Of a DNA stretch of 64,000 bases, positions 4,428 to 42,494 are shown piece after piece. A model generated the notes under the pieces. It was not told the DNA's origin. It worked only from the letters and a program-made list of their open reading frames with translations, and ran no database searches. Made by a program: the position numbers and the translations under genes. The stretch comes from an uncultured delta proteobacterium. GTDB taxonomy: Bacteria; Desulfobacterota; Binatia; Binatales; Binataceae. The stretch spans positions 992,001 through 1,056,000 of the forward strand of contig CAWEEQ010000004.1 of the NCBI GenBank assembly GCA_963808235.1. The letters are read 5' to 3'. The first letter of the stretch is position 1; every line of letters starts with the position of its first letter.

Positions 4428-5091
4428 TTACACCCGGCCGCCGATCCAGATCACTCGCCCGATAACCTTCACCATCGGAACCACCATCGGCTTCGTATTT
4501 CGGATTGTCGCTGCGCACCAGCAGCTTGCCGTCGGGTCGCCGCTGGATCCTCTTTACCGTCAACCCGCCGTCATGCCGCAGCAGGTAGATCCCGTCCTGC
4601 TTGAAACGCGGCTCGGCCAGGTTGGCGAGGATCAAGTCCGAATCCTTCACCGTCGGCGCCATCGAATCGCCATCCACTTCGATCAGGAGCAAATCGCGCG
4701 GCTCAGTGTTGAGGCTGCGCTTCACCCACGCGGCGCGAAACGCGACCGAGTCGACCACCTGGTCGCTGCTCAACACTCCCTCGCGCCCGCTCGAAAATCG
4801 AATCCGGTTGCGCGGCATGAAGATATAGTCGCCGTGCTCCATCGCATGCGTGATCGCCGCCGCCGTCTGCTTCGACTCCTCACCCGTCGCCAGCCACTCG
4901 ATCGATACCCGCGCCGCCCGCGCCAGCGAGACCAGGTTGTTCACGCTCGGCTGCCCGCGCCCGGATAGCCATTTGTAAATTGCGTTGTCCGATACTCCGA
5001 CCGCTTTCGCGACCGCCACCACGGAGTCGAATGTGTGAATCACCTGGGTCAGCCGCGCCCGGAATTCTGCCTCAACTATAGTGGTTGACAT
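4428..5091 (-). CDS. CI/LexA-like phage repressor (Cro/C1 HTH + S24 peptidase), with a +1 frameshift near 4492
   Basis: HTH (VAKAVGVSDNAIYKWLSG...VSIEWLATG), GDSMAP Ser, VKRI Lys, SDNPKY; removing one base restores PMVVPMVKVIGRVIWIGGRV* with stop at 4428-4430; AGGAG RBS upstream. Confidence 0.9.
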
Positions 5092-5403
5092 ATAACTCCT
5101 TGTGTGAAATAAAGTTCTTAAAGCGCATGTCGTCTCCACAAGCAAATCACCGTCAACTCTCGCCGAAGCTTTTGCTCCCCACGCAGGTCCCCCGCGAATC
5201 TGCTCTCAACCCCATGCATCCTCCCATTCACCCGCCTCGCCGCCTCGATCGCCGATTCTCCCGCCCACACACTTCTAGCCTAGATCGCAGCCGCGCGCGC
5301 GTGGTTTCGTTCACAGTTTTCCACCAACCTCAAGTCCCACCGATCAAATCCGCACTCTTCCCGCTACTCACACTGCTCGATTCTGTTTGTCCGCGGAGGA
5401 TTT

Positions 5404-5625
5404 ATGGAAGCCGCGACCATTCTCGTTCGCACTCGCGTTTCTAATCGCGTCGTTGGATGCCTCTGGTGTCACCAGCCATCCAGTCATTCGGATGTGATTC
5501 GCAATCATGGACTCTGCGCTTCATGCGCCCAGCAGTGCGCGGAGATTTCATGGCGGCTCATCTATGATCGCGATCGCAAAATCGGATCGATTCCCGTAAA
5601 CCTTCGCCTCGCCTACGGCCTATGA
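5404..5625 (+). CDS. Small putative zinc-binding protein (CxxC...CxxC)
   Basis: GGAGGA RBS; CLWC and CASC pairs; ATGA overlap with the next gene. Confidence 0.6.
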   Translation: MEAATILVRTRVSNRVVGCLWCHQPSSHSDVIRNHGLCASCAQQCAEISWRLIYDRDRKIGSIPVNLRLAYGL

Positions 5626-6107
5626 ACGCATCGCCCAACTTAAGAGCGGCTGCGAATCGCGTGCACTCGATGCCGCCGAGCGATCCTTTCACTGACGCGG
5701 CGCACTCGTCGCTTTACGATCAGATCGGTCGCTCGATCGGCGCCGATAAGGCGCACAAGCTCATCGCGGATTTCGGCGGCCGGCGTTTGTACATCCCGGT
5801 CGCGCCGGCGCCTGGCGATCGAGTGACGAGTTCGATCGGTCTGGTCGCGGCGCTCGCGATGGCGCGAGTGTTCGGCGGGGATCGCCTGGTGATTCCGGTC
5901 ACGATCGATCATGCGCGCCGCCGCAAGCGAATCTTTGCGCTGCGCGCCAACCACCTGAGCGTCGCGCGCATCGCGCGGCAGCTCCGATGCAGTGAGCGCC
6001 ACGTGTACAAGGTCCTGGCCGAGGGCCGCGATGGCCGTCTCGATTCGACAACGCCCGCGCCGTCCGCGGAGCACTTCAAACGTGGAAGCATCACCGGCCG
6101 TTCATGA
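5622..6107 (+). CDS. Mor/C-family transcription activator
   Basis: FGGRRLYIP and FGGDRLVIP motifs plus C-terminal HTH (VARIARQLRCSERHVYKVL). Confidence 0.85.
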   Translation: MNASPNLRAAANRVHSMPPSDPFTDAAHSSLYDQIGRSIGADKAHKLIADFGGRRLYIPVAPAPGDRVTSSIGLVAALAMARVFGGDRLVIPVTIDHARRRKRIFALRANHLSVARIARQLRCSERHVYKVLAEGRDGRLDSTTPAPSAEHFKRGSITGRS

Positions 6108-6612
6108 CAAGTACACGCCTGAATTTTTGATCGCCGTCGATCGGGTTCTGTCTAACGAGGGCGGCTACACCTTGGACCCGGCCGACCCGGGCGGCGCGAC
6201 CAAGTTTGGAATCTCCGCGCGCGAGCATCCCGGAGTCGACATCGCGGCGCTGACGCGCGACGCGGCCGTGAACATTTACTGGCGCGATTGGTGGCTCAAG
6301 TTCGGATTCGCGCGCCTGCCGAGCGGCGCGGCGGCCAAGACCTTCGACCTCGCAGTCAATATCGGACCGGCGCACGCGATCGAATGTCTTCAGCGCGCGC
6401 TGCGCGCCTGCGGGCATCGAGTCTCCGAAGATGGCGTCCTCGGCGAAGGGACGGCGCTCGCGGCGGCGCACGCCGATTCTGCGTCTCTGATCGTTGCGCT
6501 TCGATCCGAGGCCGCCGGCTACTACCGGGTCAGCGCCGCGCTCGCACGCGGCCCGCGCGCCAACGCCGACCGCGAATTTCTCGACGGATGGTTAAACAGG
6601 GCCTACGAATGA
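6082..6612 (+). CDS. GH108 lysozyme (endolysin) with peptidoglycan-binding C-terminus
   Basis: EGGY...DPGGATKFGIS, FDLAVNIG, DGVLG, FLDGWLNR; GTG start chosen from GGAG RBS. Confidence 0.92.
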   Translation: MEASPAVHDKYTPEFLIAVDRVLSNEGGYTLDPADPGGATKFGISAREHPGVDIAALTRDAAVNIYWRDWWLKFGFARLPSGAAAKTFDLAVNIGPAHAIECLQRALRACGHRVSEDGVLGEGTALAAAHADSASLIVALRSEAAGYYRVSAALARGPRANADREFLDGWLNRAYE

Positions 6613-6933: not shown

Positions 6934-7233
6934 GTGAATGAGATGAGCGTAACGGAAATTATCGCCGCGGGTGCGTACCCGCTCGTAGGCCTGGCCGGTT
7001 TTATTTTGGGCTCGCTGTTCGGACAAAAGCTGGTCGCCGATATCGAGGCGATGCTGCACGCGATCGAAGCGCGGCTCACGTCGGTTGAGAGTTCGGTGGC
7101 GACCAGTTCCGCAACCAGCGCGATCATGACTCACGCCGCCGCGACCGAAAAACTCGCGGTCGCCGTCGCCAAGCATTCGGCGGCGCAGGCGCAAGCCGCG
7201 GCCGCATCGAGTGCGCCCGCGGCGAAGAGCTGA
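6934..7233 (+). CDS. Small membrane-anchored coiled-coil protein
   Basis: GAGG RBS, one TM segment then Ala-rich helix. Confidence 0.6.
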   Translation: MNEMSVTEIIAAGAYPLVGLAGFILGSLFGQKLVADIEAMLHAIEARLTSVESSVATSSATSAIMTHAAATEKLAVAVAKHSAAQAQAAAASSAPAAKS

Positions 7234-7238
7234 CCGCG

Positions 7239-7640
7239 ATGCCGGCTCTGTTGATTGCGAACTACTGGAAGCCGATCGCGATCGCGGTCGCGATCGCCGC
7301 GATCTTCGCCTATCGCGCGGTGATTGTTCATCAACGCGACGCGGCGATCGCGTCGGCTGCCGCGCTGACTGCGCAGGTGGCCGACTTGCAAAGCGCGGAA
7401 GCGGCCTGCGAGGCCGCGGTGGCGCGGCAGAACGCGGCGGTCAACGCACTCGCGGATTCGGCCGCGCGCGAATCGGCGGCGGCGCAAACCCGCGAGGCCA
7501 ACGTCGCCGCCGCCGCGGCGAGCACGGCAACGGCCGAAGCGCGCCGCGCGGCCGCGCTCGAGACCGCGCCGATCGCATCGGATTGCGCAGGCGCAATCAA
7601 ATGGGCCAACGCGCAAGCGGCGGACTTGGGCAAATGGTGA
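7239..7640 (+). CDS. Rz-like inner-membrane spanin candidate
   Basis: N-terminal TM, Ala-rich coiled coil, C-terminal Cys; position in lysis cassette. Confidence 0.6.
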   Translation: MPALLIANYWKPIAIAVAIAAIFAYRAVIVHQRDAAIASAAALTAQVADLQSAEAACEAAVARQNAAVNALADSAARESAAAQTREANVAAAAASTATAEARRAAALETAPIASDCAGAIKWANAQAADLGKW

Positions 7641-7808
7641 AGGGCGAACGGATGAAAACACAAAATGACATTAGACGATCTGCTTCGCCCTCCCATTGTT
7701 CCGGTTCACCTCTACCGCTGATGGCGACTGCGTCGCCATCAGCGGACCGGGAGAGGTCGTCCGACGACATTAATGTCGTCGGCCGGGTGAGCGCGCCGGT
7801 ATCGAGCG

Positions 7809-7870
7809 CTCCCGATGGGAGAGGATCGCCTCTTCCCCTCTCCCGATGGGAGAGGATTGAAGGTGAGGGA
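7809..7870 (+). repeat. REP-like repeat, family C (CCTCTCCC-N-GGGAGAGG...GGTGAGGG)
   Basis: Hairpin CCTCTCCCgatGGGAGAGG; related copy at 8394-8448. Confidence 0.7.
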
Positions 7871-7936
7871 CCTTATTCAGCGCGCGCTTCGCGCGCCATT
7901 CAAGATTCTGCTCTGCTCCGAAGCCTCGCTAAAGTT

Positions 7937-8377
7937 ATGCAAAGCCCTCACGCAGGGAGGGGCAAGACCTGCGGCGATATCTGCGCGCTGCTGCTCGCCT
8001 TTGCACTCACTGGATGCGCGCAAGTTGTGCCGGCGCCGGCGCCGCGCCCCGTGATGGTCGAAGTTCCGGTCGCGACTCCAATCTACTGCCAGGTGCCAAC
8101 CCTGACGCCGCCGGCACTCGCAATCGCGACGCTCAGTCCTGACTCGCCGCCTGCCGATACCGTCCGCTCCTACGCGGCGACAGTGGACATACTGAAAAGC
8201 GCGGTCCACGAACGCGACTCGATTTTGCAAGCCTGCGCCCCTCCATCAGGAACCACCAACCCACCTCCACCCCCAATCCCGCAAGCGAGTATCGCAACAC
8301 CGCCCGCAAAACCAGCGCAAGTGAGTATATCCAGTCGAATACTAACTACGATGCGGAAACTAGTCACATGCTGGTAA
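7937..8377 (+). CDS. Rz1-like outer-membrane lipoprotein (o-spanin candidate)
   Basis: Lipobox LLLAFALTGC, Pro-rich VEVPVATPIYCQVP, later LQAC; start uncertain. Confidence 0.6.
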   Translation: MQSPHAGRGKTCGDICALLLAFALTGCAQVVPAPAPRPVMVEVPVATPIYCQVPTLTPPALAIATLSPDSPPADTVRSYAATVDILKSAVHERDSILQACAPPSGTTNPPPPPIPQASIATPPAKPAQVSISSRILTTMRKLVTCW

Positions 8378-8393
8378 CACTCCTCTCCAATAG

Positions 8394-8448
8394 CCTCTCC
8401 CTGACAGGGAGAGGTCGGCGCGTCGTCTTCGACGCGGCGGGTGAGGGT
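8394..8448 (+). repeat. REP-like repeat, family C
   Basis: CCTCTCCCTgacAGGGAGAGG...GGGTGAGGG. Confidence 0.7.
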
Positions 8449-8557
8449 ACTTATTCAAAAGTCGGCATACTCAGATGACATACTCACTAACTATCTCACT
8501 CCTCCCATACGTTTTCTTCGCACTAGGCATAATCGGAGGTTACTACATATTCCGGTC

Positions 8558-8842
8558 ATGAAATTGCTCAATGACATGCTGACCGGGAAAGACAACCTCA
8601 CTTTCGACGCGGCCCGCGTAGTCGGTGTGATCGGCGCGTTTGCCTATATCGCATTCTGGTGCGTGCAGGTCTGGCATATGCGCCGCTTCGAGCCGGCCGA
8701 CGCCGATGCGTACGGCAAGGGCCTCGGGATGGTGCTGCTCGCGATGGCGGGGGCGGTGCTGTTGAAAAAATCGACCGAACCGGAAGTGCGCGCCGAAGAA
8801 GATCGGATGCGCGATCACGACCACGACGGTGCGATGCGATGA
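8558..8842 (+). CDS. Small two-TM phage membrane protein (holin-like)
   Basis: LTGKDNLTFD followed by two hydrophobic helices and a charged tail. Confidence 0.55.
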   Translation: MKLLNDMLTGKDNLTFDAARVVGVIGAFAYIAFWCVQVWHMRRFEPADADAYGKGLGMVLLAMAGAVLLKKSTEPEVRAEEDRMRDHDHDGAMR

Positions 8843-9141
8843 GCTGGGAAGCGATCGCATCGTTTTTGCTGGTGCTGGTGACCCTGGTCGGAATCAATAT
8901 CGGAACGATCCGATCGATGCTCGAGCGGCATCGCAGCGCCACCCTGCGCGATTCCGAGAGATGGCAGGAGATTGAGCGCTCGGTGTTCGAATTGCGCGCG
9001 TCGATGCCGCTGGAATACGTGCGGCGCGAGGACTGGATCAGATTCAGCGGCTCGCTCGACGCGAAGCTCGATGCGATGCGGGAAGAAATGCGTGAAGAGA
9101 TCGCAGAGGTAAAGGACAGGTTGTATGCCGGAAGGAATTGA
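8839..9141 (+). CDS. Mu gp25-like membrane-anchored coiled-coil protein
   Basis: N-terminal TM, PLEYVRREDWIR...LDAKLD motif, position before gp26/gp27-like genes. Confidence 0.65.
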   Translation: MSWEAIASFLLVLVTLVGINIGTIRSMLERHRSATLRDSERWQEIERSVFELRASMPLEYVRREDWIRFSGSLDAKLDAMREEMREEIAEVKDRLYAGRN

Positions 9142-9439
9142 CCTCGAACAGAAGCGTCGCGAAGAAGCGCGCTGGCGCGTTTTGCGCGTCATCGATGCGG
9201 GGCGGCCGATCGCGGTCTCGGAGCAGATAATCTGGCGTGTGCTGGTGGATATCAAGCTCTCGCTCTCGATCAACGGCATCCGCCGCGAGCTCGCCTATCT
9301 GCGCGACTTGGGCCTGGTCGAACTCGAAGGCGAAGACGGGGAGACCTGGTTCGCCAAACTGACCGCCAGCGGGGTTGACGTGGTCGAGTACAACTTCCCC
9401 GCCCCGGCGGGGGTGGCGCGCCCGCGGAAATACTGGTGA
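9125..9439 (+). CDS. Mu gp26-like winged-helix protein
   Basis: IRRELAYLRDLGLV...LTASGVDVVE...GVARP motif. Confidence 0.8.
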   Translation: MPEGIDLEQKRREEARWRVLRVIDAGRPIAVSEQIIWRVLVDIKLSLSINGIRRELAYLRDLGLVELEGEDGETWFAKLTASGVDVVEYNFPAPAGVARPRKYW

Positions 9440-10062
9440 GGAGTCGCAGGTCCGAGAAAAAAGATCTTGCGCCGGGAGGCAACGGCGAAAAGCTGACGCG
9501 GATTGAGACGCCGGGAAAGATTCGGAGGCTCCCTGAACATATCAAGATCGAGCTGGACCGCCGTCTATCGGCCGGAACTTTTCGCAGTTGGCGGATCTTG
9601 TCGGAATGGCTCGCCGAGAAGGGATACGAGATTTCGCACGCGGCGTTGCACAAGTACGGGAAGAAATTCGATCGGCGGCTGGAATCGATTCGGCTGGCGA
9701 CCGAGCAGGCGCGAATCGTCTGCGAACAGTTCAAGGACGATGACGTGCAGATGCAAAGCGCATTGTTGCGCCTGGTGCAAACGCGGCTGTTCGAGGTGCT
9801 TGCCGCGGTCAACGAAAAGCCAAAGAGAGTGCGTGGCAAGAAGGGCGGCGTCGAGAGCATCGAGAAGGTCGCACCGGTGAATCTCACCGCGCTCGCGCGC
9901 AGCGTGTCGGGACTGGTGAAGGCGGAGACGGAAAATCGGAAGTGGGCGGAGCACGCGCGCGGGGCAGTCGACGAGGCAAAAAAGAAACTCGAAGATGCGC
10001 GCGGCAAGGGGCTGAGCCCCAACACAGCGGATCAAATCAGGGCCGTGTTGATGGAGATTTAG
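9436..10062 (+). CDS. DUF3486 family protein (Mu gp27-like, putative small terminase)
   Basis: KIRRLPEHIK...LSEWLAEKGYEISHAALHKYG...GLS...IR motifs; synteny. Confidence 0.88.
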   Translation: MRSRRSEKKDLAPGGNGEKLTRIETPGKIRRLPEHIKIELDRRLSAGTFRSWRILSEWLAEKGYEISHAALHKYGKKFDRRLESIRLATEQARIVCEQFKDDDVQMQSALLRLVQTRLFEVLAAVNEKPKRVRGKKGGVESIEKVAPVNLTALARSVSGLVKAETENRKWAEHARGAVDEAKKKLEDARGKGLSPNTADQIRAVLMEI

Positions 10063-10094
10063 TGGTGAGCAGTTTCTTCAGCCGGCACTTCTTT

Positions 10095-10836
10095 CCTTGT
10101 GTCATTCTGAGCGCAGCGAAGAAACCCGGTGTCCAGGAGAGCGTCGGCATCGAGCTGAATGTGCGCGCCCTTCGGAGCAGCTCGGCTCCGCGTGCCCTAA
10201 GCGAAGTCGAAGTGTATTGCACCGAGAAAGATCCGGGGTTCTTCGCTGCGCTCAGAATGACACAAAAAAAGAGCGCTCCGGGGGTGGGGCTCAGCACGGA
10301 CGTGGCAAATCCGATCAGAGCGGTGTTGATGGAGGTTTAGATTGAATACTCAGTTCATTCAACTTCGCGCTTCTTCTCCTTGTGTCATTCTGAGCGCAGC
10401 GAAGAAACCCGCTGTCCAGGAGAGCGTCGGCATCGAGCTGAATGTGCGCGCCCTTCGGAGCAGCTCGGCTCCGCGTGCCCTAAGCGAAGTCGAAGTGTAT
10501 TGCACCGAGAAAGATCCGGGGTTCTTCGCTGCGCTCAGAATGACACAAAAAAAGAGCGCTCCGGGGGTGGGGCTCAGCACGGACGTGGCAAATCCGATCA
10601 GAGCGGTGTTGATGGAGGTTTAGATTGAATACTCAGTTCATTCAACTTCGCGCTTCTTCTCCTTGTGTCATTCTGAGCGCAGCGAAGAAACCCGGTGTCC
10701 AGGAGAGCGCCGGCATCGAGCTGAATGTACGCGCCCTTCGGAGCAGCTCGGCTCCGCGTGCCCTAAGCGAAGTCGAAGTGTATTGCACCGAGAAAGATCC
10801 GGGGTTCTTCGCTGCGCTCAGAATGAAACAAAAAAA
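10095..10836 (+). repeat. 283-bp tandem repeat (about 2.6 copies), each with a family-B REP doublet hairpin
   Basis: Units start at 10095, 10378 and 10661, nearly identical; about 32-bp inverted arms (10098-10129 / 10233-10264). Confidence 0.95.
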
Positions 10837-11295: not shown

Positions 11296-11324
11296 AGCGG
11301 TGAGCACGCCGGTATCGATTGAAG

Positions 11325-12860
11325 ATGAGTGAACCACTTTCAATACTCCTGCCCTATCAGCGGCGATGGATCGCCGACCAGGCGCAGGTCAAGGTCAGCG
11401 AAAAATCGCGGCGCATCGGGATCACCTGGACCGAAGCTGCCGATCGCGCGCTCGGGGCGGCGACTAACGGGCGGGCCGGAATCGATGGATGGTATATCGG
11501 CTACAACAAGGACATGGCGCTCGAATTCGTGGAAGCGGCGGCGAGTTGGGCGCGGCGCTTCAACCGGGCGGCGAATACGATCGAGGAAATCGCGCTGGAA
11601 GACGAACGCGCGAATATTCTCGCCTACCGGATTCGCTTCGCGTCGGGGCACAAGATAGTCGCGCTGTCGTCGCGGCCGTCGAATCTGCGCGGCAAAGACG
11701 GATGCGCCGTTATCGACGAGGCGGCCTTTCATGAAGACCTGCCCGGGCTTCTGAAAGCGGCGCTCGCGTTCACGATGTGGGGCGGCCTGGTGCGGATCAT
11801 CTCGACCCATAACGGCGCCGACAATCCATTCAACGAACTGATCAGCGAGATTCGCGCCGGCCGGCGCCCGTATTCATTGCATCGCACGACCCTCGATGAC
11901 GCGATCGGCGACGGCCTCTACCGGAAAATCTGCGAACAGGGCGGACTGGAATGGAACGAGGCGGGGCAGCGCGATTGGCGTCAGCAGATCGTGGATTTCT
12001 ACGGCGACAACGTCGGCGAGGAATTGTTCTGCATCCCGCGCGCGTCGTCGGGCGCGTACCTGAGTTCGGTATTGATCGAAGCGCGGATGCGCGCGGGCAT
12101 ACCGATCGTCCGATGGCAACTGCCGCAGGAGTTTTCCGGCCGCGCGGAGAATGTGCGCCATTCGGAAACCCGCGACTGGTGCGAGGACAACCTGGCGCCG
12201 GTGCTGGACGCGCTCGAGCCGAAGCTGGCGACTTTTTTCGGCGAGGACTTCGGCCGCTCAGGCGATCTGACCGTCATCTGGCTGCTGCAAATCGCCGCGG
12301 ACCTGGTGCGCCGCACGCCGCTGGTGGTCGAGCTGCGCAACGTCCCGTTTCGCAACCAGGAGCAGATCCTCTTCTATATAGTGGACCGGCTCCCGCGCTT
12401 CGCTGCGGGCGCGATGGACGCGCGCGGCAACGGGCAATATCTGGCCGAGACCGCAGCGCAGCGCTACGGATCGAAAATCGTGCAGGTCATGCTCTCCGAG
12501 TCTTGGTACCGGGAAAACATGCCGCGCTACAAAGCGGCGTTCGAAGACGGGACGATCGAAATTCCCAAGGACGCGGACATCCTGTCGGACCATCGCGCCT
12601 TCGTGCTGGAGCGCGGAGTTGCGAAGATTTCCGAGCGGCGGTCGGGAATCGACGGCAAGGGACGGCATGGTGACGCGGCGATGGCGGCGGCGCTCGCATA
12701 CTTCGCGTCGCGGGTCGACGGCGGCAAGTTCGGATACATCGCGGCGCCGTCGTCGCGATCGCGGCGCGGCCTCGCGGAGTTGGGTAGTGGTGGAAATCCT
12801 TTCGGTGCGCCGCCGGAAGAAGACGCGGCGACGTCGGTGCATCACGCGAGAGGATTCTGA
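11325..12860 (+). CDS. Terminase large subunit (Mu gp28-like)
   Basis: LLPYQRRW, Walker A KSRRIGIT, Walker B VIDEAAF, ISTHNG, nuclease GEDFGRSGD and HGDAA. Confidence 0.95.
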   Translation: MSEPLSILLPYQRRWIADQAQVKVSEKSRRIGITWTEAADRALGAATNGRAGIDGWYIGYNKDMALEFVEAAASWARRFNRAANTIEEIALEDERANILAYRIRFASGHKIVALSSRPSNLRGKDGCAVIDEAAFHEDLPGLLKAALAFTMWGGLVRIISTHNGADNPFNELISEIRAGRRPYSLHRTTLDDAIGDGLYRKICEQGGLEWNEAGQRDWRQQIVDFYGDNVGEELFCIPRASSGAYLSSVLIEARMRAGIPIVRWQLPQEFSGRAENVRHSETRDWCEDNLAPVLDALEPKLATFFGEDFGRSGDLTVIWLLQIAADLVRRTPLVVELRNVPFRNQEQILFYIVDRLPRFAAGAMDARGNGQYLAETAAQRYGSKIVQVMLSESWYRENMPRYKAAFEDGTIEIPKDADILSDHRAFVLERGVAKISERRSGIDGKGRHGDAAMAAALAYFASRVDGGKFGYIAAPSSRSRRGLAELGSGGNPFGAPPEEDAATSVHHARGF

Positions 12861-13044
12861 CCGGGTTCATCAATATGCAGATGAATAGCTACTGGAAGTG
12901 GAAATGCGAAGGGTGCGGGTTTGAGTTTCTTCTGACGCTGGTGCGCATTCCCGAACCGTGCCATCGATGCGGCGGCGAATGGTTTCTGAAAATCGGCGAA
13001 GCAGCGAGCAAGGAACATCGCTCAGACTAGATAATGGAGTGACT

Positions 13045-33817: not shown

Positions 33818-33842
33818 TCGGCCCGGACGCCAGAGGAAAAGA

Positions 33843-34361: not shown

Positions 34362-34401
34362 CCGTGCCTGGCCGCGAAATCGCGGCATGGAGCGATGCGC
34401 T

Positions 34402-34767
34402 ATGAAGACCGACGAAGTTACGGTGAACGGAGTGCGAATCGGCGGCGCGGAGGCTCTGGAAGAGCGAGAGACGAAGACGATCGAGCTGCCGTCGGGAGCG
34501 CGGGCAGAAGTTCGCACGGGTGTGGGGCGCGACTTGATGCGAGCGCAACGGGCAGTGGCCGGCGGAGACGCGAGTGCGGTGGTATTCGCGCTGATCGCGG
34601 AACTCGCGCGGATCGATGGTCGCAAGATCGTCTACGAAGACGTGCTGGAGATGGAACTTGGCGATGTGATGGCGTTGCAGGCGGAGGTGATCGGCGAAAA
34701 TTTCGAGCGCCCTCCGCAGCGAGCTTCGCAGGCCTCGTCCAATCCGGATTCTCAGCCGGAGAGCTAG
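34402..34767 (+). CDS. Tail assembly chaperone (E/G-like)
   Basis: IELPSG, GRDLMRAQR, IDGRKI.YED..EM..GD; position after tube. Confidence 0.8.
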   Translation: MKTDEVTVNGVRIGGAEALEERETKTIELPSGARAEVRTGVGRDLMRAQRAVAGGDASAVVFALIAELARIDGRKIVYEDVLEMELGDVMALQAEVIGENFERPPQRASQASSNPDSQPES

Positions 34768-34926: not shown

Positions 34927-35211
34927 ATGGGTGTGAGACTATTCGTAGGTAATTTGAGTTTTTCGCTGGGCGACAACGATCTGCGCGCGGCATTCGCGGA
35001 CGTGGGTAGTGTGGAACGCGCCGAGATTGTGCGCGATCGCTACGACGGGCGCTCGCGCGGTTTTGGATTCGTCGAGATGCGCAACGAAGACGACGCGGCG
35101 GTGGCTTTGCGTTCGATGAACGGAAAGGAACTCGCGGGACGATTGCTACGCGTTGAAGCGGCAACCTCGCAGCGCCGGCCCTTCGAGCGCAATACGGCGC
35201 GGCCTGGTTAG
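34927..35211 (+). CDS. RRM-domain RNA-binding protein
   Basis: RNP2 LFVGNL, RNP1 RGFGFVEM, MNGKELAGRLLRV. Confidence 0.95.
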   Translation: MGVRLFVGNLSFSLGDNDLRAAFADVGSVERAEIVRDRYDGRSRGFGFVEMRNEDDAAVALRSMNGKELAGRLLRVEAATSQRRPFERNTARPG

Positions 35212-35243: not shown

Positions 35244-36278
35244 ATGAAAAAGACGGAGCGATCCAAGGCGGACATCATGAAGCGCGGCCCTGGTGAATCG
35301 GCGTTGGCGGGAGGGCACGACGCACTTAGCCAGGTGGCCGGCTTCGTACGCGCAAGTATCGAGGTCGCTCGGGCGACCGATCGGCTGGCAAAGATCGCGC
35401 GACAGCAAATTCCCCTTGCCGCGTACGGACTGGTTACGAGAACCGCGACGCCCGCCGAGATGGAGTCGATGCGAGGTGGCTCTCAGAGCCATCTGGAAGA
35501 TCCGGCGTGGCCAAGTGAAGGTGGGAGCGCGTTTCAAGCTGCGGATGCGATGGTGGCGCTTCAGAGGTTTGCATCGAACCTCAAGGCACTCGACGCGGCA
35601 CGAGTCGGAGAGGGCAGGCGCTTTCTGCGCGGATCGGAAAGCTTAAGCGTGAGAGCGACCGGCGAGATGTCGGAGATCGGCGGGCCGGAAATGGATTCTA
35701 CAGTCGATGCTCGCGGCAGATTTTTCCGGGCCGTTCAGCAGTCGGCCTCTCGCATACAAGCGCTGAGGGGGATCGGAAGCAGAGAACGTCTGGAGGGTCC
35801 GGATGGCAAGCGAAGTTCGAACGTCACGCTCTCATGGGGTGACCTTGCGGGGCGGGCAGATCGCGCGCTTGGCCTTGTCGGCCGACTCTCAACGGAAGGC
35901 GAAGAATCATCACGCGGGCCTGGTCCGCGCTTCGAGCGGAGTCGTGCCTCGTTCAATGTCGACCGAATACTAACTTCGACTGAAAAGTATATGTCGGGGT
36001 CGAGAGGGCGCGGATGGAACGGGGCGAGAGGCACGATAGTTGCGCCGGCGAGTCTTTCGCGGCCGGAATTTGCGGAGCCCATGCGCGGCGTATATGGGCA
36101 GGAGTCGAGGAGCACGCCTGGGGCGATAACGATCAACTCGACTCCGACAGTGGTTATCAATGCGGGCGAGCCCGGCGATGTTGAGCGTCAAGTAGCCGGC
36201 GCGCTGAGACTGCATCGCGAGGAATTGTTCGATCAATTGAAACGAGAGTCGGTGCGGCGCGAACGCGCGCAGTTTTAA
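35244..36278 (+). CDS. Short or degenerate tape-measure-like protein
   Basis: Syntenic slot before gpU; only the C-terminus (ITINSTPTVVINAG...LKRESVRRERAQF) resembles a tape-measure end. Confidence 0.55.
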   Translation: MKKTERSKADIMKRGPGESALAGGHDALSQVAGFVRASIEVARATDRLAKIARQQIPLAAYGLVTRTATPAEMESMRGGSQSHLEDPAWPSEGGSAFQAADAMVALQRFASNLKALDAARVGEGRRFLRGSESLSVRATGEMSEIGGPEMDSTVDARGRFFRAVQQSASRIQALRGIGSRERLEGPDGKRSSNVTLSWGDLAGRADRALGLVGRLSTEGEESSRGPGPRFERSRASFNVDRILTSTEKYMSGSRGRGWNGARGTIVAPASLSRPEFAEPMRGVYGQESRSTPGAITINSTPTVVINAGEPGDVERQVAGALRLHREELFDQLKRESVRRERAQF

Positions 36279-36294: not shown

Positions 36295-36873
36295 TTGTTC
36301 GCAACGTTGGGTGAAATTCCGTTCGAAGTAGTCGGCTCGCCTGAGGGCTACGAATCGAGCCGGGCATACGATTTCGCCGAGCATCGAGTGGTCGAGAGCA
36401 AGCCGCGGCTGCAATGGGTAGGCAACGATCTCGAGCGCCTGAAATTTGAATTGCGGCTGCATTCATCGTTCACCGACCCGGCCGCGAAGCTGGCGCTGCT
36501 GCGCGCGACGGCGGCGGCGCATCTCGCGTTGCCGCTGGTTTTTGGCGACGGCGGTTTTCGAGGGTTTTTCGTAATCGAATCCATATCAATGAGATCGCAG
36601 CAACTTTCGGCACACGGTGCTCCGATCGCGATTACAGCCGCGCTCGCGCTCAAGGAATGGGCGGTGGAATCCGAGTTGTTCGCAGGGTCATCGCCGATCC
36701 CGGATTTTGTGCCGCTGGGAATCATGCCGGCGGCGAGTTCGAGCGGCGGCTCGGCGCCGATCCCGGGGATATCGGCATTACTTAGTGTATCTCCTGCGAC
36801 GGGCACGACTGGACCGAACCTCGAGGCAAACGACGTACCAGTCTCGGTGATAGTAAGGAGCGCCGCACCATGA
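36295..36873 (+). CDS. P2 GpU-like tail tube initiator
   Basis: FATLGEIPF, FAEHRV...KPRLQWVG, LPLVFGDG.F.G.FVI, LKEW. Confidence 0.9.
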   Translation: MFATLGEIPFEVVGSPEGYESSRAYDFAEHRVVESKPRLQWVGNDLERLKFELRLHSSFTDPAAKLALLRATAAAHLALPLVFGDGGFRGFFVIESISMRSQQLSAHGAPIAITAALALKEWAVESELFAGSSPIPDFVPLGIMPAASSSGGSAPIPGISALLSVSPATGTTGPNLEANDVPVSVIVRSAAP

Positions 36874-37112
36874 CGCAGGGGACGCAATACATACTTCATA
36901 TCACCAAAGCGGGTGAGCGGTGGGATTTGCTTGCGTGGCGATACTACGGCGATCCGACTGACTATAGCCCGATCATAATGGCTAATCCGGATGTTGCGAT
37001 CGAACCGGTATTTGACGCGGGAATAGCTATCGCGGTGCCTATCGTCCAGAAGAGCACGGTGGTGAGCGCAGATTTACCGCCGTGGAAAATGCCGCGGCCG
37101 GTGGGCGTGTAG
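36870..37112 (+). CDS. Tail protein X (LysM-like)
   Basis: HIT..GERWDLLAWRYYG, IIMANP, LPPWK. Confidence 0.92.
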   Translation: MTQGTQYILHITKAGERWDLLAWRYYGDPTDYSPIIMANPDVAIEPVFDAGIAIAVPIVQKSTVVSADLPPWKMPRPVGV

Positions 37113-38126
37113 ATGGCTGCCGCAGTATTGCATTCCGTTCGCGCGCCGCAGTGGGTGCTTACCTACGAGGGTGTGAACATCACTACGGATATATCGCACA
37201 TGGTACTTGCGATTAGCTATGTGGACCGGCTTGGTGAGGCGTCGGGCGAGTTTGAGGTAGAGCTGGAAGATCACGCGAAAAAGTGGCAAGGGCCATGGTA
37301 TCCGGGACTGGGAAACATACTCAGTCTGCAGATTGGCTACTCCGGCGAAGCACTACTGGATTGCGGGTCCTTCCAGGTCGACGAACTGGAGTTCGACGGG
37401 CCACCGGATGTGATGCGACTCAGATGCCTGAGCGCGTACATCACACCAGCGATGCGCACGCCAAATACGATGGCCTACGAGGGTCAGAGCATCGTGGATA
37501 TCGCCGGGCAAATCGCGTCCAAGTATGGACTCAGCCTGGTGACGGCGCCCTCGGCCATCGAGAGCGACGTAGTGTTTGCGCGCGTAACCCAACGCCGCGA
37601 AACGGATCTCGGATTTCTGAAGCGCCTTGCAATCGAGCACGGTTTTGACTTCACGGTGCGCGGCGCGCAGATGGTCTTTTACGCGCGGACGGCTCTGGAA
37701 GCGGTAATCCCGCTGGTCGTGATCACACGGCCGGACACGACAGGGTTCTCGTTTCGCAACCGGACGCGGCGAATTTACAGCGGCGCGGAAGTGGCTTACT
37801 TCGATCCTGACACCAAGCAGTTGATCACTCAGACCGTGACAGCGATTCCGCTGGTCCCGACGACGGACACGCTCAAGATCGTAACGCGTTCGGAAAACGC
37901 ACAGCAGGCCCTGGTGAAGGCCCAAGCGGCGCTTCATCTGCACAACATGGTGTTCGTCGATGCGTCGATCGAGGGTCCGGGGAACGTGATGCTGGTGGCG
38001 GGAAACCAAGTGGAGATATCCGGATGGGGCGCGCTTGACGGAGCGTATCTGATTGAAACGGCGCGGCATCGGGTCGCGCGTGCGAGCGGATACACGACTG
38101 CGATCGAGGCGCGCCGGGTTGATTAA
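37113..38126 (+). CDS. Late control D / baseplate hub protein
   Basis: ISYVD, LQIGY, GSFQVDE, RVTQRRETDLGFLKRLA, GYTT. Confidence 0.92.
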   Translation: MAAAVLHSVRAPQWVLTYEGVNITTDISHMVLAISYVDRLGEASGEFEVELEDHAKKWQGPWYPGLGNILSLQIGYSGEALLDCGSFQVDELEFDGPPDVMRLRCLSAYITPAMRTPNTMAYEGQSIVDIAGQIASKYGLSLVTAPSAIESDVVFARVTQRRETDLGFLKRLAIEHGFDFTVRGAQMVFYARTALEAVIPLVVITRPDTTGFSFRNRTRRIYSGAEVAYFDPDTKQLITQTVTAIPLVPTTDTLKIVTRSENAQQALVKAQAALHLHNMVFVDASIEGPGNVMLVAGNQVEISGWGALDGAYLIETARHRVARASGYTTAIEARRVD

Positions 38127-38271
38127 AGTGTCGCAGCGCAAAAGAAAGACCGCTACGCGCGGGGCGGCAGGGGTGACCCCTGCACCCAGTGTCCATTCCA
38201 TTCAATCGCAAAATCCCGCGGACGGTATTTTGCTCCGGTCTGATGGCGAAGATAGGTGAAGGGAACGAATC

Positions 38272-38964
38272 ATGAATCAGCTCATTGAATATCGCGAAAG
38301 ATTTTTCGCGCAGAATCCGGCGTTTCGGGTTGGGATCGTGCAGCAGCAGGATGCCGCGCACGCGAAGGTCCGCGTGGTGTTTCCGGATTACGACGAAGTG
38401 ATCAGTTGGTGGCTGCCGGTGGTTTTCGCGAAGACGCAGAACGACAAAGCTTACTGGATTCCGGACGTCGGAGAGCAAGTCGTTTGTCTGATGGATTTGC
38501 GGGACGAAGCAGGCGCGGTGCTGGGCGCGATTTATTCAGACGCGGACTTGACGCCGGTGAACAGCGCCGACAAGTTTCATCTCGGGTTCCAGGATGGCAC
38601 CAGCATCGACTACGATCGCGCGGCACACGTTCTCGATCTCCTTTTCCAGGACACCACGGAACTCAAGTACGACGCTCATGTCCATCTGCTCGATCTGAAG
38701 TTTCAGGACCAGGGCGAGATCAAATACGACGGCACCGAGCACATTCTGACCGTGAGCCTTCCGCAGGGTGCGGCGTTCAACGTTACCGCGAACGGTGCGC
38801 AGATGCAGATCGATTCTAACGGCGACGTCATCATCAGGGCTGCCGGACAGGTGAGGCTTGGAACCGGTCAACTGGCAGGAGTCGCGCGGTTGGGCGACAC
38901 GGTTCAGGTTGGCAATCAGACGGGAACGATCGTGACGGCGAGCGCCGACGTGTTGGCAGGGTAA
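38272..38964 (+). CDS. Baseplate spike protein V
   Basis: VRVVFPD...SWWLPV, WIPDVGEQV.CL, GAVLGAIYS, FQDGT.I.YD. Confidence 0.92.
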   Translation: MNQLIEYRERFFAQNPAFRVGIVQQQDAAHAKVRVVFPDYDEVISWWLPVVFAKTQNDKAYWIPDVGEQVVCLMDLRDEAGAVLGAIYSDADLTPVNSADKFHLGFQDGTSIDYDRAAHVLDLLFQDTTELKYDAHVHLLDLKFQDQGEIKYDGTEHILTVSLPQGAAFNVTANGAQMQIDSNGDVIIRAAGQVRLGTGQLAGVARLGDTVQVGNQTGTIVTASADVLAG

Positions 38965-38967
38965 GCG

Positions 38968-39384
38968 ATGCCGGCAGGAGCAATAACGCTCGCGGACATC
39001 ACGTCGGCGGACTGGTCGCTGGAGCTCGGCACGATTGGCGGGGTGGTACAGGGGATTGCGGACGTCGAGCAGTGTCTGGGGATCATCGTGACGACGCCGC
39101 GCGGTAGCGATCCACTTCGGCCGACGTTTGGCTCGGACATCTGGCGATATATCGATTTTCCGATCGACGAAGCGCTGCCGGCGATCGTGCGTGAGCTGAC
39201 CTCGGCAATCACCACGTGGGAGCCGCGGGTGAATCTGATTTCGGTAACGGCGCAACCGGTGAACGATGGGAGCACGCAGTCGGGGGCGCATCTTGATGTG
39301 ACGCTCACGTGGCAACTGAAGCTCGGCGGCGCACCATCGCCAGCGCAAATCACGATCGTGACAATCCCGGGAGCGGCGGCCTGA
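38968..39384 (+). CDS. GpW/gp25 baseplate wedge protein
   Basis: I..TPRGSDPLRPTFGS, YIDFP, AI.TWEPRV. Confidence 0.93.
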   Translation: MPAGAITLADITSADWSLELGTIGGVVQGIADVEQCLGIIVTTPRGSDPLRPTFGSDIWRYIDFPIDEALPAIVRELTSAITTWEPRVNLISVTAQPVNDGSTQSGAHLDVTLTWQLKLGGAPSPAQITIVTIPGAAA

Positions 39385-39421
39385 CGCTGGGCCGCGCCGA
39401 TGGCGATGAAAGGATGAGTTG

Positions 39422-40591
39422 ATGGGCGCAGGAATTCCGTCGCTGCCACCGCCGATATTCGTGAACGATGCCGACGGCCTGGATCCGAACAAGATCCTGG
39501 CCGACATGATCGCCGAGTTCGAGGCGGCATCGGGGCGCACGCTTGCGCCGGCGCAAGTCGAGCGCCTGCTGATCAATCTCTATGCTTATCGCGAGTCGCT
39601 GGTGCGAAACGCGATTCAGTATGCGGGGGAGCAGAATCTGCTGGCGTTCGCGTCGTTTCCGATGCTTGACTATCTCGGTCAACTGCTCGGCGTGAGCCGG
39701 CTCGCGTCGCAGCCCGCGTCGACTACGATCCAATTCACACTGACGAACGCGCTCTCGGTGCCGTTTACGATTGCGGCGGGAACCCTGGTTGGGACCAACG
39801 ATGGGAACTTTGCATTTGCGACGGGCGCCGCAATCACGATCGCGGCGGGCGCGACGACCGCGAGTGTCGCAGCCCTGGCGACCGCTCCAGGAGCCGCCGC
39901 GAACGGCTACTTGGCCGGACAGGTGAGCGTACAGCTGAATCCGAGCGCGCTAATCGCGAGCGCTAGCAATACGACGACGACTGCAGGTGGATCGGCTCCT
40001 GAGACCGACGATCATCTGCGGACACGAATCCAGGCGGCGCCCAATCAATTCAGCGTCGCAGGACCGGTCGGCGCGTACCGGTTTTTCGCGATCGGCGCCG
40101 ATCCGTCGATCATCGACGCGCAGATCATGAGTCCGGCGCCGGGAATAGTGAACGCATACGTGCTGACCGGACCGATCAGTGTGCAGCCCGCGGCGGCGCC
40201 GAACAGCGCCGGGGTAGCGAGCGGATTGCTGCTCGCAAAAGTTGCGGCGGCGCTGAACGCAGACATCGTGCGGCCGCTTACCGACACGGTGAACGCGCTC
40301 GCGGTGACTGAAATCGACTACCAGATAAGCGCGACGGTAACACTTTATGCCGACGCCGATCCGACCGCGACGATAGCGGCGGCGAGTGCGGCGGCGCAGG
40401 AGCTCGCGCTCGAGCTGGCGGCGAAGATACAGCGCGACATCGTGCCGAGCCAGGTTATCGCGGCGCTTTCGGTAGCGGGGGTGTACGGTGTGACGCTCTC
40501 GTCGCCGGCGCTGACGACGCTCGGCGTGGGGCAGTGGGCGAACTGTACTGCGATTACGCTGACGACCGCGTTCAGCACGGAGCATAGCTGA
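39422..40591 (+). CDS. Baseplate J/gp47 protein
   Basis: GRTLAPAQVERLLI, AYRE, LDYLG, ETDDHLR.RI, FSVAGP.GAY, RPLTD.V. Confidence 0.94.
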   Translation: MGAGIPSLPPPIFVNDADGLDPNKILADMIAEFEAASGRTLAPAQVERLLINLYAYRESLVRNAIQYAGEQNLLAFASFPMLDYLGQLLGVSRLASQPASTTIQFTLTNALSVPFTIAAGTLVGTNDGNFAFATGAAITIAAGATTASVAALATAPGAAANGYLAGQVSVQLNPSALIASASNTTTTAGGSAPETDDHLRTRIQAAPNQFSVAGPVGAYRFFAIGADPSIIDAQIMSPAPGIVNAYVLTGPISVQPAAAPNSAGVASGLLLAKVAAALNADIVRPLTDTVNALAVTEIDYQISATVTLYADADPTATIAAASAAAQELALELAAKIQRDIVPSQVIAALSVAGVYGVTLSSPALTTLGVGQWANCTAITLTTAFSTEHS

Positions 40592-40592
40592 T

Positions 40593-41456
40593 ATGCCTGA
40601 GCTTTCCGCGGCGCCCTCGATAAACGATACGCGCACGCAGGCGTTGCTGGAATTGATCGCGCGGCTGGCTGCGCTCGATCTGACGCAGATCCTGGTTTAT
40701 CGGATCGACTCGGTGCCGGAGGGCGCATTGCCATTTCTCGCGTGGCAGTTCGACATCCTGTCGCCGCTGTGGCAGTTGGTTGCGCCGGTGTCGCTTGGAG
40801 TCGATGCGCTTTCCGATATCGATCTGTTGATCGACATCGACAACCTGATCGAGACCGGCGGAATTGTGTCGGGCGAGAGTCTTACCGAGGCGGCGCAGCG
40901 CGTAATGCTCAAGAGCGCCGTGCCGTTGCATCGCTTCCGCGGAACCCCGTTTGCGGTGAAGCAGGCGCTAGCGTCGCTCGGATGGACGCAGGTCAATCTG
41001 CTTGAAGGGCAATCGAGATGGGGCGGAGCGAGCTATCCTTCGAGCCAGGGTTGGGCGGTTTTTCGGGTGATGATCGACTTGGTGGACGGGCAGAGCGTGG
41101 CGAGCGGGGTGGTATCGACGGCGGCCGCGGCGGTGAATTTTTTCAAGCCTGCGCGCGCATGGCTGGATTCGATTTGGTTTGTGACGCCGCCGGTGTCTGA
41201 TGTGGGGCCGACGCCCTCAGACGAATTCACGCTTGGAGGAATCGTTCAATACCAGATCGACGCGGCTCGAGTACCTGGCGACGGCGGACTGGCTATAGCC
41301 ATTGTGTCCGCGGCAATTGTGGATGCGTACGGTCCGATCATGCCCATTTACGATAGTCACTATCGGCATAGCGGAATCACCTATGGCGTCAACGAGCCCG
41401 AAGTGGCGGATTGCGCCCTGTTGATGAACGGCGCGGCCGTCTTGGACGGAGGTTAA
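40593..41456 (+). CDS. P2 gpI-like tail/baseplate protein
   Basis: LPFLAWQF, LHRFRGTPFAVK.AL, WAVFRV, FKPAR. Confidence 0.88.
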   Translation: MPELSAAPSINDTRTQALLELIARLAALDLTQILVYRIDSVPEGALPFLAWQFDILSPLWQLVAPVSLGVDALSDIDLLIDIDNLIETGGIVSGESLTEAAQRVMLKSAVPLHRFRGTPFAVKQALASLGWTQVNLLEGQSRWGGASYPSSQGWAVFRVMIDLVDGQSVASGVVSTAAAAVNFFKPARAWLDSIWFVTPPVSDVGPTPSDEFTLGGIVQYQIDAARVPGDGGLAIAIVSAAIVDAYGPIMPIYDSHYRHSGITYGVNEPEVADCALLMNGAAVLDGG

Positions 41457-41457
41457 G

Positions 41458-41922
41458 ATGAAAAGTCCGGCGGGAATTGTGCGGATCCGACTGCTGAAGC
41501 GAGGTCGCGTCGCGTGGACCTACGAGGGGCGCAATCTTTTCGTGAATGCGGGAAGACCGGCGCTCGCGGCGCTCCTCGGAGGCGATACCGCCGGCGAATT
41601 TGCGGCGGCAGTCGGGTTCGGATCGGGCTCGTTGGCTCCCACAGTGAACGACACGGCGCTGACGGCGCCCGGATACTACAAGGCGCTCGACAGCCACAGC
41701 GAAGACGGCAGTGGGAGCGTGACGTTCAACTGGTCCCTGACCGGGGCTGACACGGGAGCGCTGGGAATAACAATTCAGGAATTGGCGCTGTTCGCGAATC
41801 ACGCGAGCGCGGGCTTGCCGGGTACAACCGCGCCGACTCCGATGCTCGCGCGCAAGACGATCGCGCCGATAGTCTTCGGGACGGGAATGAGTATCAGCGG
41901 CACGTGGACCCTTACTTTCTGA
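41458..41922 (+). CDS. Tail-collar / fibre N-terminal-like protein
   Basis: NLFVNAGR, VGFGSG..AP...DTAL, I.ELALF, WTLTF; GGAGG RBS. Confidence 0.65.
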   Translation: MKSPAGIVRIRLLKRGRVAWTYEGRNLFVNAGRPALAALLGGDTAGEFAAAVGFGSGSLAPTVNDTALTAPGYYKALDSHSEDGSGSVTFNWSLTGADTGALGITIQELALFANHASAGLPGTTAPTPMLARKTIAPIVFGTGMSISGTWTLTF

Positions 41923-41930
41923 GGTAGTCA

Positions 41931-42494
41931 ATGGCTACACTAATCGACGCAGCGGAGTTTACCTCGAATGAGGTTTACCAAATTCAAGCGACCGACCCGG
42001 TCGAGGGCGCGGCGAGTGGCGCGACCTTCAACGGCACCGGCATTTCCAACCAGCCGCATCAGCAACTTGCAAATCGAACCGCGTTCCTGAAGCAGCGCCA
42101 GGATGTGAACATCGGGAATATCGGCGTCCTGCAGGCATTCATGGGCGCGTTCGCGGGTTCGATCTCGGGAAATGGATATCTGACAATTCCGATCGCGGAT
42201 GTGAATCGCGGATCGATCGTTGCGATTTTGGAGTGGGGCGCGATGTTTCCGGGTGGGGGTCTGGATGACGATACGAACTACGCGGTGACCTGGCCGACGG
42301 CATTTCCCAACGCGTGCATCTGGGCGATGGCGACGCTCGCGAATCCGCGTGGGAGAGCGCATATCGCAAAGTTGGTAATAGATGTCGTCAGTTACACCAG
42401 GACGATAGGTACGTTTCGATCGGCCTTCATCGCCGGCTCGGACAGCACCCAGGCTCCGAACGACGGCTTTTACTGGATGGCGATCGGATTCTGA
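41931..42494 (+). CDS. Short tail fibre protein (gp53-like C-terminal domain)
   Basis: VYQI...DPV.G, NQP.QQLANRT.FLK, NGYL.IP, EWG, WPTAFPNAC, YWMAIGF. Confidence 0.85.
   Translation: MATLIDAAEFTSNEVYQIQATDPVEGAASGATFNGTGISNQPHQQLANRTAFLKQRQDVNIGNIGVLQAFMGAFAGSISGNGYLTIPIADVNRGSIVAILEWGAMFPGGGLDDDTNYAVTWPTAFPNACIWAMATLANPRGRAHIAKLVIDVVSYTRTIGTFRSAFIAGSDSTQAPNDGFYWMAIGF

Follow-up and report, generated by a model that had tools for sequence, protein, structure and literature searches.

A Mu-like phage gene set without transposition genes, conserved across the uncultured family Binataceae, is a candidate domesticated particle

The subject of this study is a cluster of Mu-like phage genes at positions 4428-42494 of a 64,000-nucleotide stretch of DNA (hereafter the window; G000:C4:992001-1056000) from an uncultured member of the family Binataceae, whose assembly (G000) consists of 4 contigs and 4.59 Mb. 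The cluster contains genes for regulation, lysis, DNA packaging, head and contractile tail, lacks the selfish modules of a phage, is inherited vertically across the family, and is under purifying selection in its head, packaging, tail and regulator genes. The interpretation that we favor, and regard as reasonably probable, is that it represents the domesticated gene set of a Mu/BcepMu-like myophage and encodes a host-maintained, inducible, non-replicating particle comparable to either gene transfer agents (GTAs) or PBSX. An initial annotation made from the letters of the window had proposed such a domesticated particle, and the examinations of its locus in relatives, of the ratio of nonsynonymous to synonymous substitutions (dN/dS) and of a possible cognate MuA, each of which might have spoken against that proposal, did not do so.

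Open reading frames (ORFs) were called from codon-position GC and scanned against Pfam, PHROGs and NCBIfam. These scans bore out the repressor, Mor, lysis, large terminase, portal, protease, capsid, neck and tail genes of the initial annotation; its accompanying claim that all genes are complete had to be given up, as it overlooks an eroded tape measure, a missing Mu F gene and a large non-phage insert. The cluster begins on the minus strand with a CI/LexA-like repressor containing HTH_3 and peptidase S24 domains in Pfam (4428..5091; 220 aa in relatives), all other phage genes being located on the plus strand. These include a Mor-family late transcription activator (5622..6107; PF08765, E 2.1e-11), a GH108 endolysin with a peptidoglycan-binding domain (5992..6612; PF05838, PF09374), a Mu gp27-like protein (9436..10062; PF11985, E 6.9e-32), which we take to be the small terminase subunit based on Mu biology, the large terminase subunit TerL (11319..12860; phrog_2, E 1.4e-32; 80-83% identity within the genus) and a Mu-type portal protein (12958..14430; PF06074, E 3.7e-105), which is present in a single copy in the G000 genome. 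The head genes comprise the Mu gpI head protease/scaffold (28181..29332; PF10123, E 4.5e-69), the virion structural protein phrog_1731 (29360..29842; PHROGs; 88-90% identity within the genus), the Mu gpT major capsid protein (29879..30823; PF10124, E 1.7e-92) and the neck or head-tail joining proteins gp36 and gp37 (30986..32243; PF07030, PF09646). They are followed by the contractile sheath, tail tube and tail assembly chaperone (TAC) genes (32276..34767; PF04984/PF17482, PF04985, and weak TAC families together with phrog_21320), a P2-type baseplate composed of gpU, gpX, gpD, the gpV spike, gpW, gpJ, gpI and phrog_5417 (36295..41922; Pfam, PHROGs), and a short tail fibre of 187 aa with a gp53-like C-terminal domain (41931..42494; PF21882, phrog_4209). 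Among the capsids of the phage collection, those of Ralstonia phage RS138 and Pseudomonas D3112/B3-like phages come closest, with at most 41.7% identity.

Thus, the late genes of a functional Mu-like prophage (Mor, gp27, portal, gpI, gpT, gp36 and gp37) are present, whereas MuA, MuB, the terminal ends and Mu F are missing. As the initial annotation had stated, no MuA, MuB, integrase or invertase domain was detected in any window ORF scanned, and the gap between the repressor and Mor genes, which spans only 477 bp, contains no MuB (PF09077). The tight edges described there were also found. On the left, a GST gene and then DoxX (3874-4419) flank the cluster, the DoxX stop at 4419 being separated by 8 bp from the repressor stop codon at 4428-4430; on the right, the fibre stop at 42494 lies 7 bp from the stop at 42502 of a murF-family gene (TIGR01143, 297.8 bits compared to a cut-off of 288.6). 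These gaps of 8 bp and 7 bp are too short for Mu end sequences beside the outermost genes. Host repeats do occur inside the cluster, where five dispersed families occupy intergenic positions and have 5 to 35 near-full-length copies in the genome. One of them forms three tandem copies with a period of approximately 283 bp between the gp27 and TerL genes (10008..10836; blastn), and 35 genome copies of at least 70% length are known for it, including the 3 copies in this array.

All genomes used for comparison are metagenome-assembled, with indel errors in some of them; the distribution tallies include seven unpublished genomes, counts of absence are limited by genome completeness, and related genomes are not independent of each other. 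Of 165 family genomes, 121 contain the capsid gene; they represent 22 of the 30 genera and include all 46 genomes of the genus to which G000 belongs. It is nearly always a single-copy gene with an open frame of 314 aa, and its identities cluster tightly by genus, being 75-95% over most of the family and 55-66% in a few deep-branching genera. In a class-wide draw of 52 family genomes and 248 genomes from 19 other families, the capsid gene was present in 43 of the former versus 2 of the latter, and these two non-family capsids showed only 32-38% identity. Among 106 family genomes, each at least 90% complete, which were used for the portal, MuA and sheath counts, the portal gene was found in 78 (20/27 genera) and the sheath gene in 83 (19/27 genera), the sheath-bearing genera largely coinciding with those that have capsid and portal.

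The position of the cluster was compared closely in five same-genus genomes, and 11 relatives overall were examined for linkage of its left half (from the repressor to a membrane protein gene, o220, behind the portal) with its right half (from the protease to the fibre). Within the genus, relatives keep the cluster at the same locus: the left half occurs in the same order behind the repressor, Mor and endolysin in all five genomes, and the right half is located beside the murF-family gene and its neighbours in four, the fifth (G006) being split. The left flank is also recognizable in these genomes by the carboxyltransferase-like gene (4/5) and DoxX (3/5). Among other genera, G069 shares the right flank and has the whole cluster beside it, the right halves of G174 and G075 also sit at this flank, and G083 carries the whole cluster at a different place. 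Linkage between the halves is lost in G006, G174 and G148, and in G075 they are 44 kb apart and inverted; both are intact in all four genomes, and a single headful would be unlikely to carry the full set there. In G000, the gene set spans 38 kb, which is close to the headful size of Mu.

Selection was assessed by pairwise dN/dS approximations (NG86, the Nei-Gojobori method) between G000 and four or five same-genus genomes. The structural genes gave values of 0.04-0.2, equal to or below those of the flanking host genes (0.08-0.32). The lowest values were observed for gpT (0.04-0.07), the tube (0.05-0.07) and the sheath (0.09-0.10), followed by the portal (0.11-0.16), TerL (0.11-0.18) and gp36/gp37 (0.10-0.19), and the two regulators gave 0.21-0.24 (repressor) and 0.18-0.49 (Mor). 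The fibre is the fastest-evolving structural gene, with a dN/dS of 0.17-0.37 and 53-70% identity. Synonymous divergence (dS) is similar in size in the two gene classes, mostly 0.5-1.3 in flanking host genes and 0.5-1.8 in cluster genes. Within another genus (g44), where dS is unsaturated (0.26-0.97), the tail genes showed dN/dS values of 0.02-0.09, with 0.024 for the tube, 0.074 for the sheath and 0.045-0.085 for the baseplate genes, and the capsid gave 0.056. The history of the cluster was also compared with that of its hosts in 15 genomes representing 7 genera, using RpoB and six concatenated cluster proteins. The two trees proved compatible: genera sampled more than once are monophyletic in both, g20 and g44 are sisters in both, and g40 and g25 are placed differently. 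Two differing groupings of the RpoB tree were not rejected by the cluster data in the approximately unbiased (AU) test (p 0.108 and 0.59).

In contrast to the complete gene list given at first, the cluster is not continuous, as 13.3 kb of non-phage genes (14487-27744) separate the portal from the protease. This is the interval in which Ralstonia phage RS138, whose capsid is the closest in the phage collection (41.7% identity), has Mu F and G, its order being portal, Mu F, G, protease, phrog_1731-like protein and capsid. Mu F (PF04233) had no match in G000 or in any of the genomes of five other genera searched (0/5), and probes for Mu F, MuA and MuB had none in the 60-kb regions of 11 relatives. 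A survey of IMG/VR, in which 80 loci found by their portal were kept, places this absence in a broader context. Twenty-five of them (L149-L173) have portals 60-82% identical to that of the cluster and thus of the Binataceae type; no Mu F-like or MuA-like gene was found in the portion available of these loci, and in many of them the protease follows approximately 1.5-2 kb past the portal, with no Mu F, methyltransferase or NHL gene between. In loci with portal identity of at most 55%, Mu F follows the portal in 45 of 54, several of which have MuA or MuB at the left end. Considering that Mu F is common in Mu-like loci and absent from Binataceae-type loci, it appears to have been lost in the ancestor of the lineage that was kept, and the vacated slot appears to have been filled later with host-type genes. 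The nearest relative that still has a Mu F-like gene, located between its portal and protease genes, is L174 (47.5 kb; portal 61%, capsid 69%), which may be either an early-branching form or a free phage relative; this record had no PF02914 match, and the control gave no match anywhere either.

The second departure from a complete phage concerns the tape measure. At the expected start of this gene, inside the tail module, lies a gene for an RRM_1 RNA-binding protein (34927..35211, plus strand; PF00076, E 1.3e-21; NF058537), which is followed by an ORF of 344 aa (35244..36278, plus strand) that is identified as a tape-measure remnant by its position and C-terminal alignment. The RRM gene is in place in genera g1, g20, g25 and g44 (65-89% identity) and in the tail module of three of the five same-genus genomes, has a dN/dS of 0.05-0.11, and has four paralogues elsewhere in G000. 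The 344-aa ORF had no match in Pfam, PHROGs or NCBIfam and is conserved over its last 80 aa only, which align to the extreme C-terminus of a PF10145 tape measure with 30% identity (E 2e-4); its counterpart in g40 (475 aa, G148) aligns to the last 280 tape-measure residues (E 3e-9). The length of the ORF between chaperone and gpU varies by lineage, being 266-365 aa in the genus and 475 aa in g40, and the ORF is fragmented in G083. Together with the conserved C-terminal end, this variation suggests that the tape measure was eroded stepwise. Used as a probe, the 344-aa ORF found no match in G174, G069, G075, G068 or G148, though it is a weak probe that misses the 475-aa ORF of G148; the tape-measure candidates of G148 and G083 had no Pfam match. 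PF10145 genes are located elsewhere in G000 (contig C2), G174 and G176 and were not found in G069 or G075, and the tape measure of the C2 type is sporadic (36/106 genomes). The remaining tail genes are under strong selection even in a lineage without a tape measure.

In the window, the repressor loses its frame 17 codons before the stop due to one extra base at 4488, and intact orthologues of 220-221 aa, ending in ...IGRVIWIGGRV, are present in G017, G013 and G008. Contigs from two public soil runs (X1 and X4), which cover window positions 4000-9000 in part, lack the extra base and are otherwise identical over 365 and 122 bases. The rpoB gene, used here as an essential reference, is itself frameshift-split in 4 of the 15 assemblies examined (G000, G006, G008 and G083). 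Given the independent contigs and the split rpoB, the frameshift is probably an assembly error and was rejected as a sign of decay; likewise, as indels occur even in an essential gene, we do not trust single indels in these assemblies as evidence of decay. The rpoB sequence of G000 (C4:430926-434983, outside the window) is spread over three reading frames.

A whole-genome search for MuA revealed that a MuA/MuB pair does exist in G000, on contig C2, so that the genome as a whole is not free of these genes, and that this pair is not cognate to the cluster. The sole MuA match (PF02914, PF09299) lies at C2:3928-6081, and MuB (PF09077) was found only in the C2 ORF 6071-6916. Both belong to an element at C2:2839-17427 (L004) that contains an S24 repressor, MuA (717 aa), MuB and a 652-aa PF10145 tape measure, as well as an 878-aa LamG/pectate-lyase-like protein and a Kelch ORF; portal, capsid and sheath genes were not found in it, nor were terminal inverted repeats of more than 10 bp. 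Its repressor is only 35% identical to that of the cluster. As C2:438-2129 repeats the end of C4 (C4:3847634-3849286; 551 aa, 100% identity), C2 continues the chromosome, and the two contigs probably join. The possibility that C2 is a plasmid with a cognate MuA was rejected based on this overlap, the repressor identity of 35% and the sporadic occurrence of MuA. A tRNA-Sec-like sequence is located immediately left of the C2 element, and elements related to it in G015, G056 and G115 have a mosaic structure with pieces of gpI, gpD, TAC and gp27. Across the family, MuA was detected in 8 of 106 genomes, compared to 78 for the portal, which implies that the family-wide cluster does not depend on MuA.

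Based on these data, the following scenario may be proposed. A Mu/BcepMu-like myophage would have entered the chromosome of the ancestor of most Binataceae, after which Mu F and the whole early operon, including ner, MuA and MuB, would have been lost, and the remainder would have been passed on vertically, host selection keeping it functional. We infer that the S24 repressor keeps the cluster silent until its stress-induced self-cleavage releases Mor, which would turn on the late genes. The gp27-like protein, TerL and the portal would then fill gpT capsids by headful packaging; as there is no transposase, phage end or phage replication, the packaging substrate could only be chromosomal DNA. 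Filled heads would join P2-type contractile tails, the GH108 endolysin cassette would lyse the producer cell, and the released particles might act on neighbouring cells either by delivering host DNA, as GTAs do, or by killing, as PBSX does. Induction, particle assembly, cargo and the effect on recipients are all predicted steps of this scenario.

Several observations weigh against a host-maintained particle. Eight of the 30 family genera yielded no capsid match, and among 29 near-complete, capsid-bearing genomes of the genus, 3 gave no match for the portal. The dS values of some genes are near saturation between genus members, which is why the estimate within g44 was added. The groupings submitted to the AU test were named only after the trees had been inspected, so that compatibility and not co-divergence is established, and the RpoB data reject the placement of g40 in the cluster tree (p 0.0135). 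Split cluster genes are seen in some relatives and, with rpoB itself split in 4 of 15 assemblies, they are indistinguishable from assembly errors. The tape measure, which a P2/Mu-type tail would be expected to need, appears eroded to 344 aa here and absent in some genera: in G174, G069 and G075, no ORF lies between chaperone and gpU, and the RRM gene directly precedes gpU. Mu F, a late gene of Mu identified by mutation, is missing as well, and its absence counts against the interpretation. In G017, the region from mid-tube to mid-gpJ is deleted and the head genes are kept, indicating that an intact tail is dispensable in at least one species. Finally, no public RNA runs containing the window stretch are listed.

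Some of these points recall an ordinary cryptic prophage in decay, retained by chance or for a few useful passenger genes, which the initial annotation had kept as a fallback and which an eroded tape measure, a lost Mu F, the invasion by host repeats and foreign genes, and the deletions in relatives would all suit. Such decay is difficult to reconcile with retention across at least 19-22 genera and with dN/dS values of 0.04-0.2 on nearly every structural gene: dS is as large as in host genes, so neutral decay would have destroyed the frames, and the trees do not suggest recent transfer among genera. This explanation is now unlikely, and we rank it as the least probable of all. Scarcely more credible is the idea that the cluster serves as a helper for defective Mu-like elements, with MuA/MuB elements spreading by means of the resident particle genes as a two-part phage. 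The C2 element of G000, with MuA, MuB and a full-length tape measure and no head or sheath genes, is the kind of partner that this idea calls for, the C-terminus of its tape measure resembles the cluster remnant, and all eight MuA-positive genomes carry the capsid; this last association is not significant, about four in five family genomes having the capsid. Moreover, the presence of MuA in only 8 of 106 genomes cannot explain family-wide conservation, and the elements vary in what they contain, resemble a mixture of deletion remnants and have no inverted terminal repeats of more than 10 bp.

It is also conceivable, though improbable in our judgement, that only parts of the cluster are in use, for instance if the tail acted in the manner of a tailocin or another contractile injection device, or if the head genes had taken on a different role, and no joint particle were formed. 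The unlinked halves in 3 of the 11 relatives examined, their separation and inversion in one more, the head genes kept in G017 without much of the tail, and the non-phage genes inserted between portal and protease would all fit such a use of parts; on the other hand, capsid, portal and sheath occur in nearly the same genera (22/30, 20/27 and 19/27), and the head-tail joiners gp36 and gp37 are constrained as well (dN/dS 0.10-0.19). A more serious competitor, albeit one that we still consider unlikely, is a killing particle of the PBSX type, i.e., an inducible weapon against competitors in which DNA packaging is a leftover of assembly without productive transfer. Its logic matches that of PBSX (repressor, late activator, head, contractile tail, lysis and no replication), the fibre evolves fastest, as expected of a part that recognizes targets, and a missing Mu F and an eroded tape measure might harm DNA delivery more than puncturing. 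However, purifying selection on TerL, the portal and the gp27-like protein is as strong as that on the tail genes, and a pure weapon of the tailocin type needs none of these three proteins. The opposite specific form of a host-maintained particle, namely a working GTA that arose independently from a Mu-like phage, builds its contractile tail with a tape measure that is vestigial or absent, and fills its heads without Mu F, is possible, and we advance it tentatively.

The remaining features of the window are mostly small or local. Between the repressor and Mor lies a small Cys-rich ORF of 73 aa (5404..5625, plus strand), which had no match in Pfam, PHROGs or NCBIfam and is 60-71% identical in five same-genus genomes. 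The true start of the endolysin, judged from candidate start codons, is probably 6031 or 6082. The plus-strand ORFs of 6934..8842 probably constitute the remainder of the lysis cassette, with holin- and spanin-like names inferred without a family match: they include an ORF with one transmembrane (TM) segment (6934-7233), an i-spanin-like ORF with an N-terminal TM segment and an Ala-rich coil (7239-7640), an o-spanin-like lipoprotein ORF recognized from its sequence (7937-8377) and an ORF with two TM segments (8441-8842), the TM segments having been located by a hydrophobicity scan. Homologues of the ORFs at 6900-8850 occur in four other genera (G069, G083, G174 and G148), and unrelated sequence takes their place in the five same-genus genomes, which points to a segment replacement within the cluster. 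They are followed on the plus strand by ORFs of phrog_462 (annotated as lipoprotein) and phrog_436 (8659..9439; PHROGs), the latter being 85-89% identical within the genus. At the right end, a post-fibre protein of 867-1516 aa with a signal peptide and a conserved NLPPPGAYQPIP motif, for which Pfam gave no match, lies between fibre and murF in G015, G017, G174, G069 and G075; as it is missing in G000 and G008, the 7-bp murF junction is a derived state.

Within the insert (14487..27744), Pfam scans located a methyltransferase, the lipoprotein o164 and the membrane protein o220 on the minus strand, a Kelch ORF and an Flp-like ORF also on the minus strand, three plus-strand ORFs without a family match (17215-17553, 17631-18455 and 19055-20386), an NHL-repeat protein of 983 aa and a DUF7948 protein of 1261 aa. 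NCBIfam gave no match for the methyltransferase, gp27, TerL or o220. The methyltransferase, o164 and o220 genes follow the portal in all five same-genus genomes, and the NHL gene is complete between portal and protease in four of them, only its C-terminal end being present in G006. The segment at 16770-20386, which contains the Kelch, Flp-like and three family-less ORFs, has a lower GC content (approximately 0.55), is bordered by copies of a single host repeat, at 18756 and 20423, and was found in none of the ten other genomes compared, i.e., it is specific to G000; it looks like a recent insertion into an already foreign insert.

To our knowledge, only a handful of independently domesticated phage-particle systems have been recognized, all of them from cultured bacteria. 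Binatota is an uncultured phylum common in soils, and we know of no genetic tools or phages for the Binataceae lineage. In the literature on Binatota/Binatia phages and on Mu-like or contractile-tail GTAs, judged mainly from titles and the beginnings of abstracts, no such cluster is described. If the favored interpretation is true, it would add a Mu-derived, contractile-tailed domesticated particle that is fixed across a whole uncultured family. Should the particles carry host DNA, they would provide a route of gene exchange in Binataceae, and, if the GTA form is the true one, a new lineage of viriforms moving chromosomal DNA among members of an abundant soil family. With Mu F lost, the tape measure eroded and the other parts under selection, the cluster would also constitute a natural experiment on the parts that a non-reproducing particle needs. 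Pieces of the Binataceae type are already catalogued as viral (25 of the 80 IMG/VR loci kept), and soil virus catalogues thus probably count this host gene set as phages.

The cluster shares features with several known systems. Mu-like phages with P2-type tails (the BcepMu group) have the same order of repressor, Mor, lysis genes, gp27, TerL, portal, protease, phrog_1731-like protein, gpT, gp36, gp37 and tail genes; unlike them, the Binataceae cluster lacks MuA, MuB, phage ends and Mu F, and has a fixed chromosomal position. Bobay, Touchon and Rocha reportedly described, in 2014, vertically inherited defective prophages of enterobacteria that are under purifying selection. The type of evidence is the same, an orthologous position and low dN/dS, whereas those prophages span a species to a genus and are mostly fragments, compared to a near-complete particle set across a family here. 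R-type tailocins consist of tail genes only; in Binataceae, head and packaging genes are present and constrained. The PBSX-like defective prophages of the Bacillus subtilis group, which are conserved among related species, have the same inducible combination that was found here, with a repressor and late activator, head, contractile tail and lysis genes and no replication. They differ from the Binataceae cluster in that their gene families are unrelated, and the latter has a conservation that spans a family of many genera and an eroded tape measure.

Comparison with GTAs yields parallels as well as differences. GTAs as defined in a review (PMC8987985), such as those of Rhodobacter (RcGTA), Bartonella (BaGTA) and Brachyspira (VSH-1), likewise consist of phage-derived genes for head, tail and lysis, have no replication or integration functions, and show clade-wide vertical inheritance, purifying selection and, in some genomes, more than one locus. 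The same combination of structural and lysis genes without replication or integration genes, inherited vertically under purifying selection, was observed in Binataceae. The cluster differs from RcGTA in its Mu-like ancestry (PF10124 capsid and PF06074 portal) and contractile tail. The earlier suggestion that it lies outside the RcGTA family agrees with its Mu-type capsid and portal and with the transposable nature of its nearest phages, a comparison made without running RcGTA proteins directly. GTAs are defined by the packaging and transfer of host DNA, whereas the Binataceae cluster is a candidate recognized here from its genes; it also differs from them in keeping the phage's own repressor and Mor switch and in belonging to an uncultured soil lineage.

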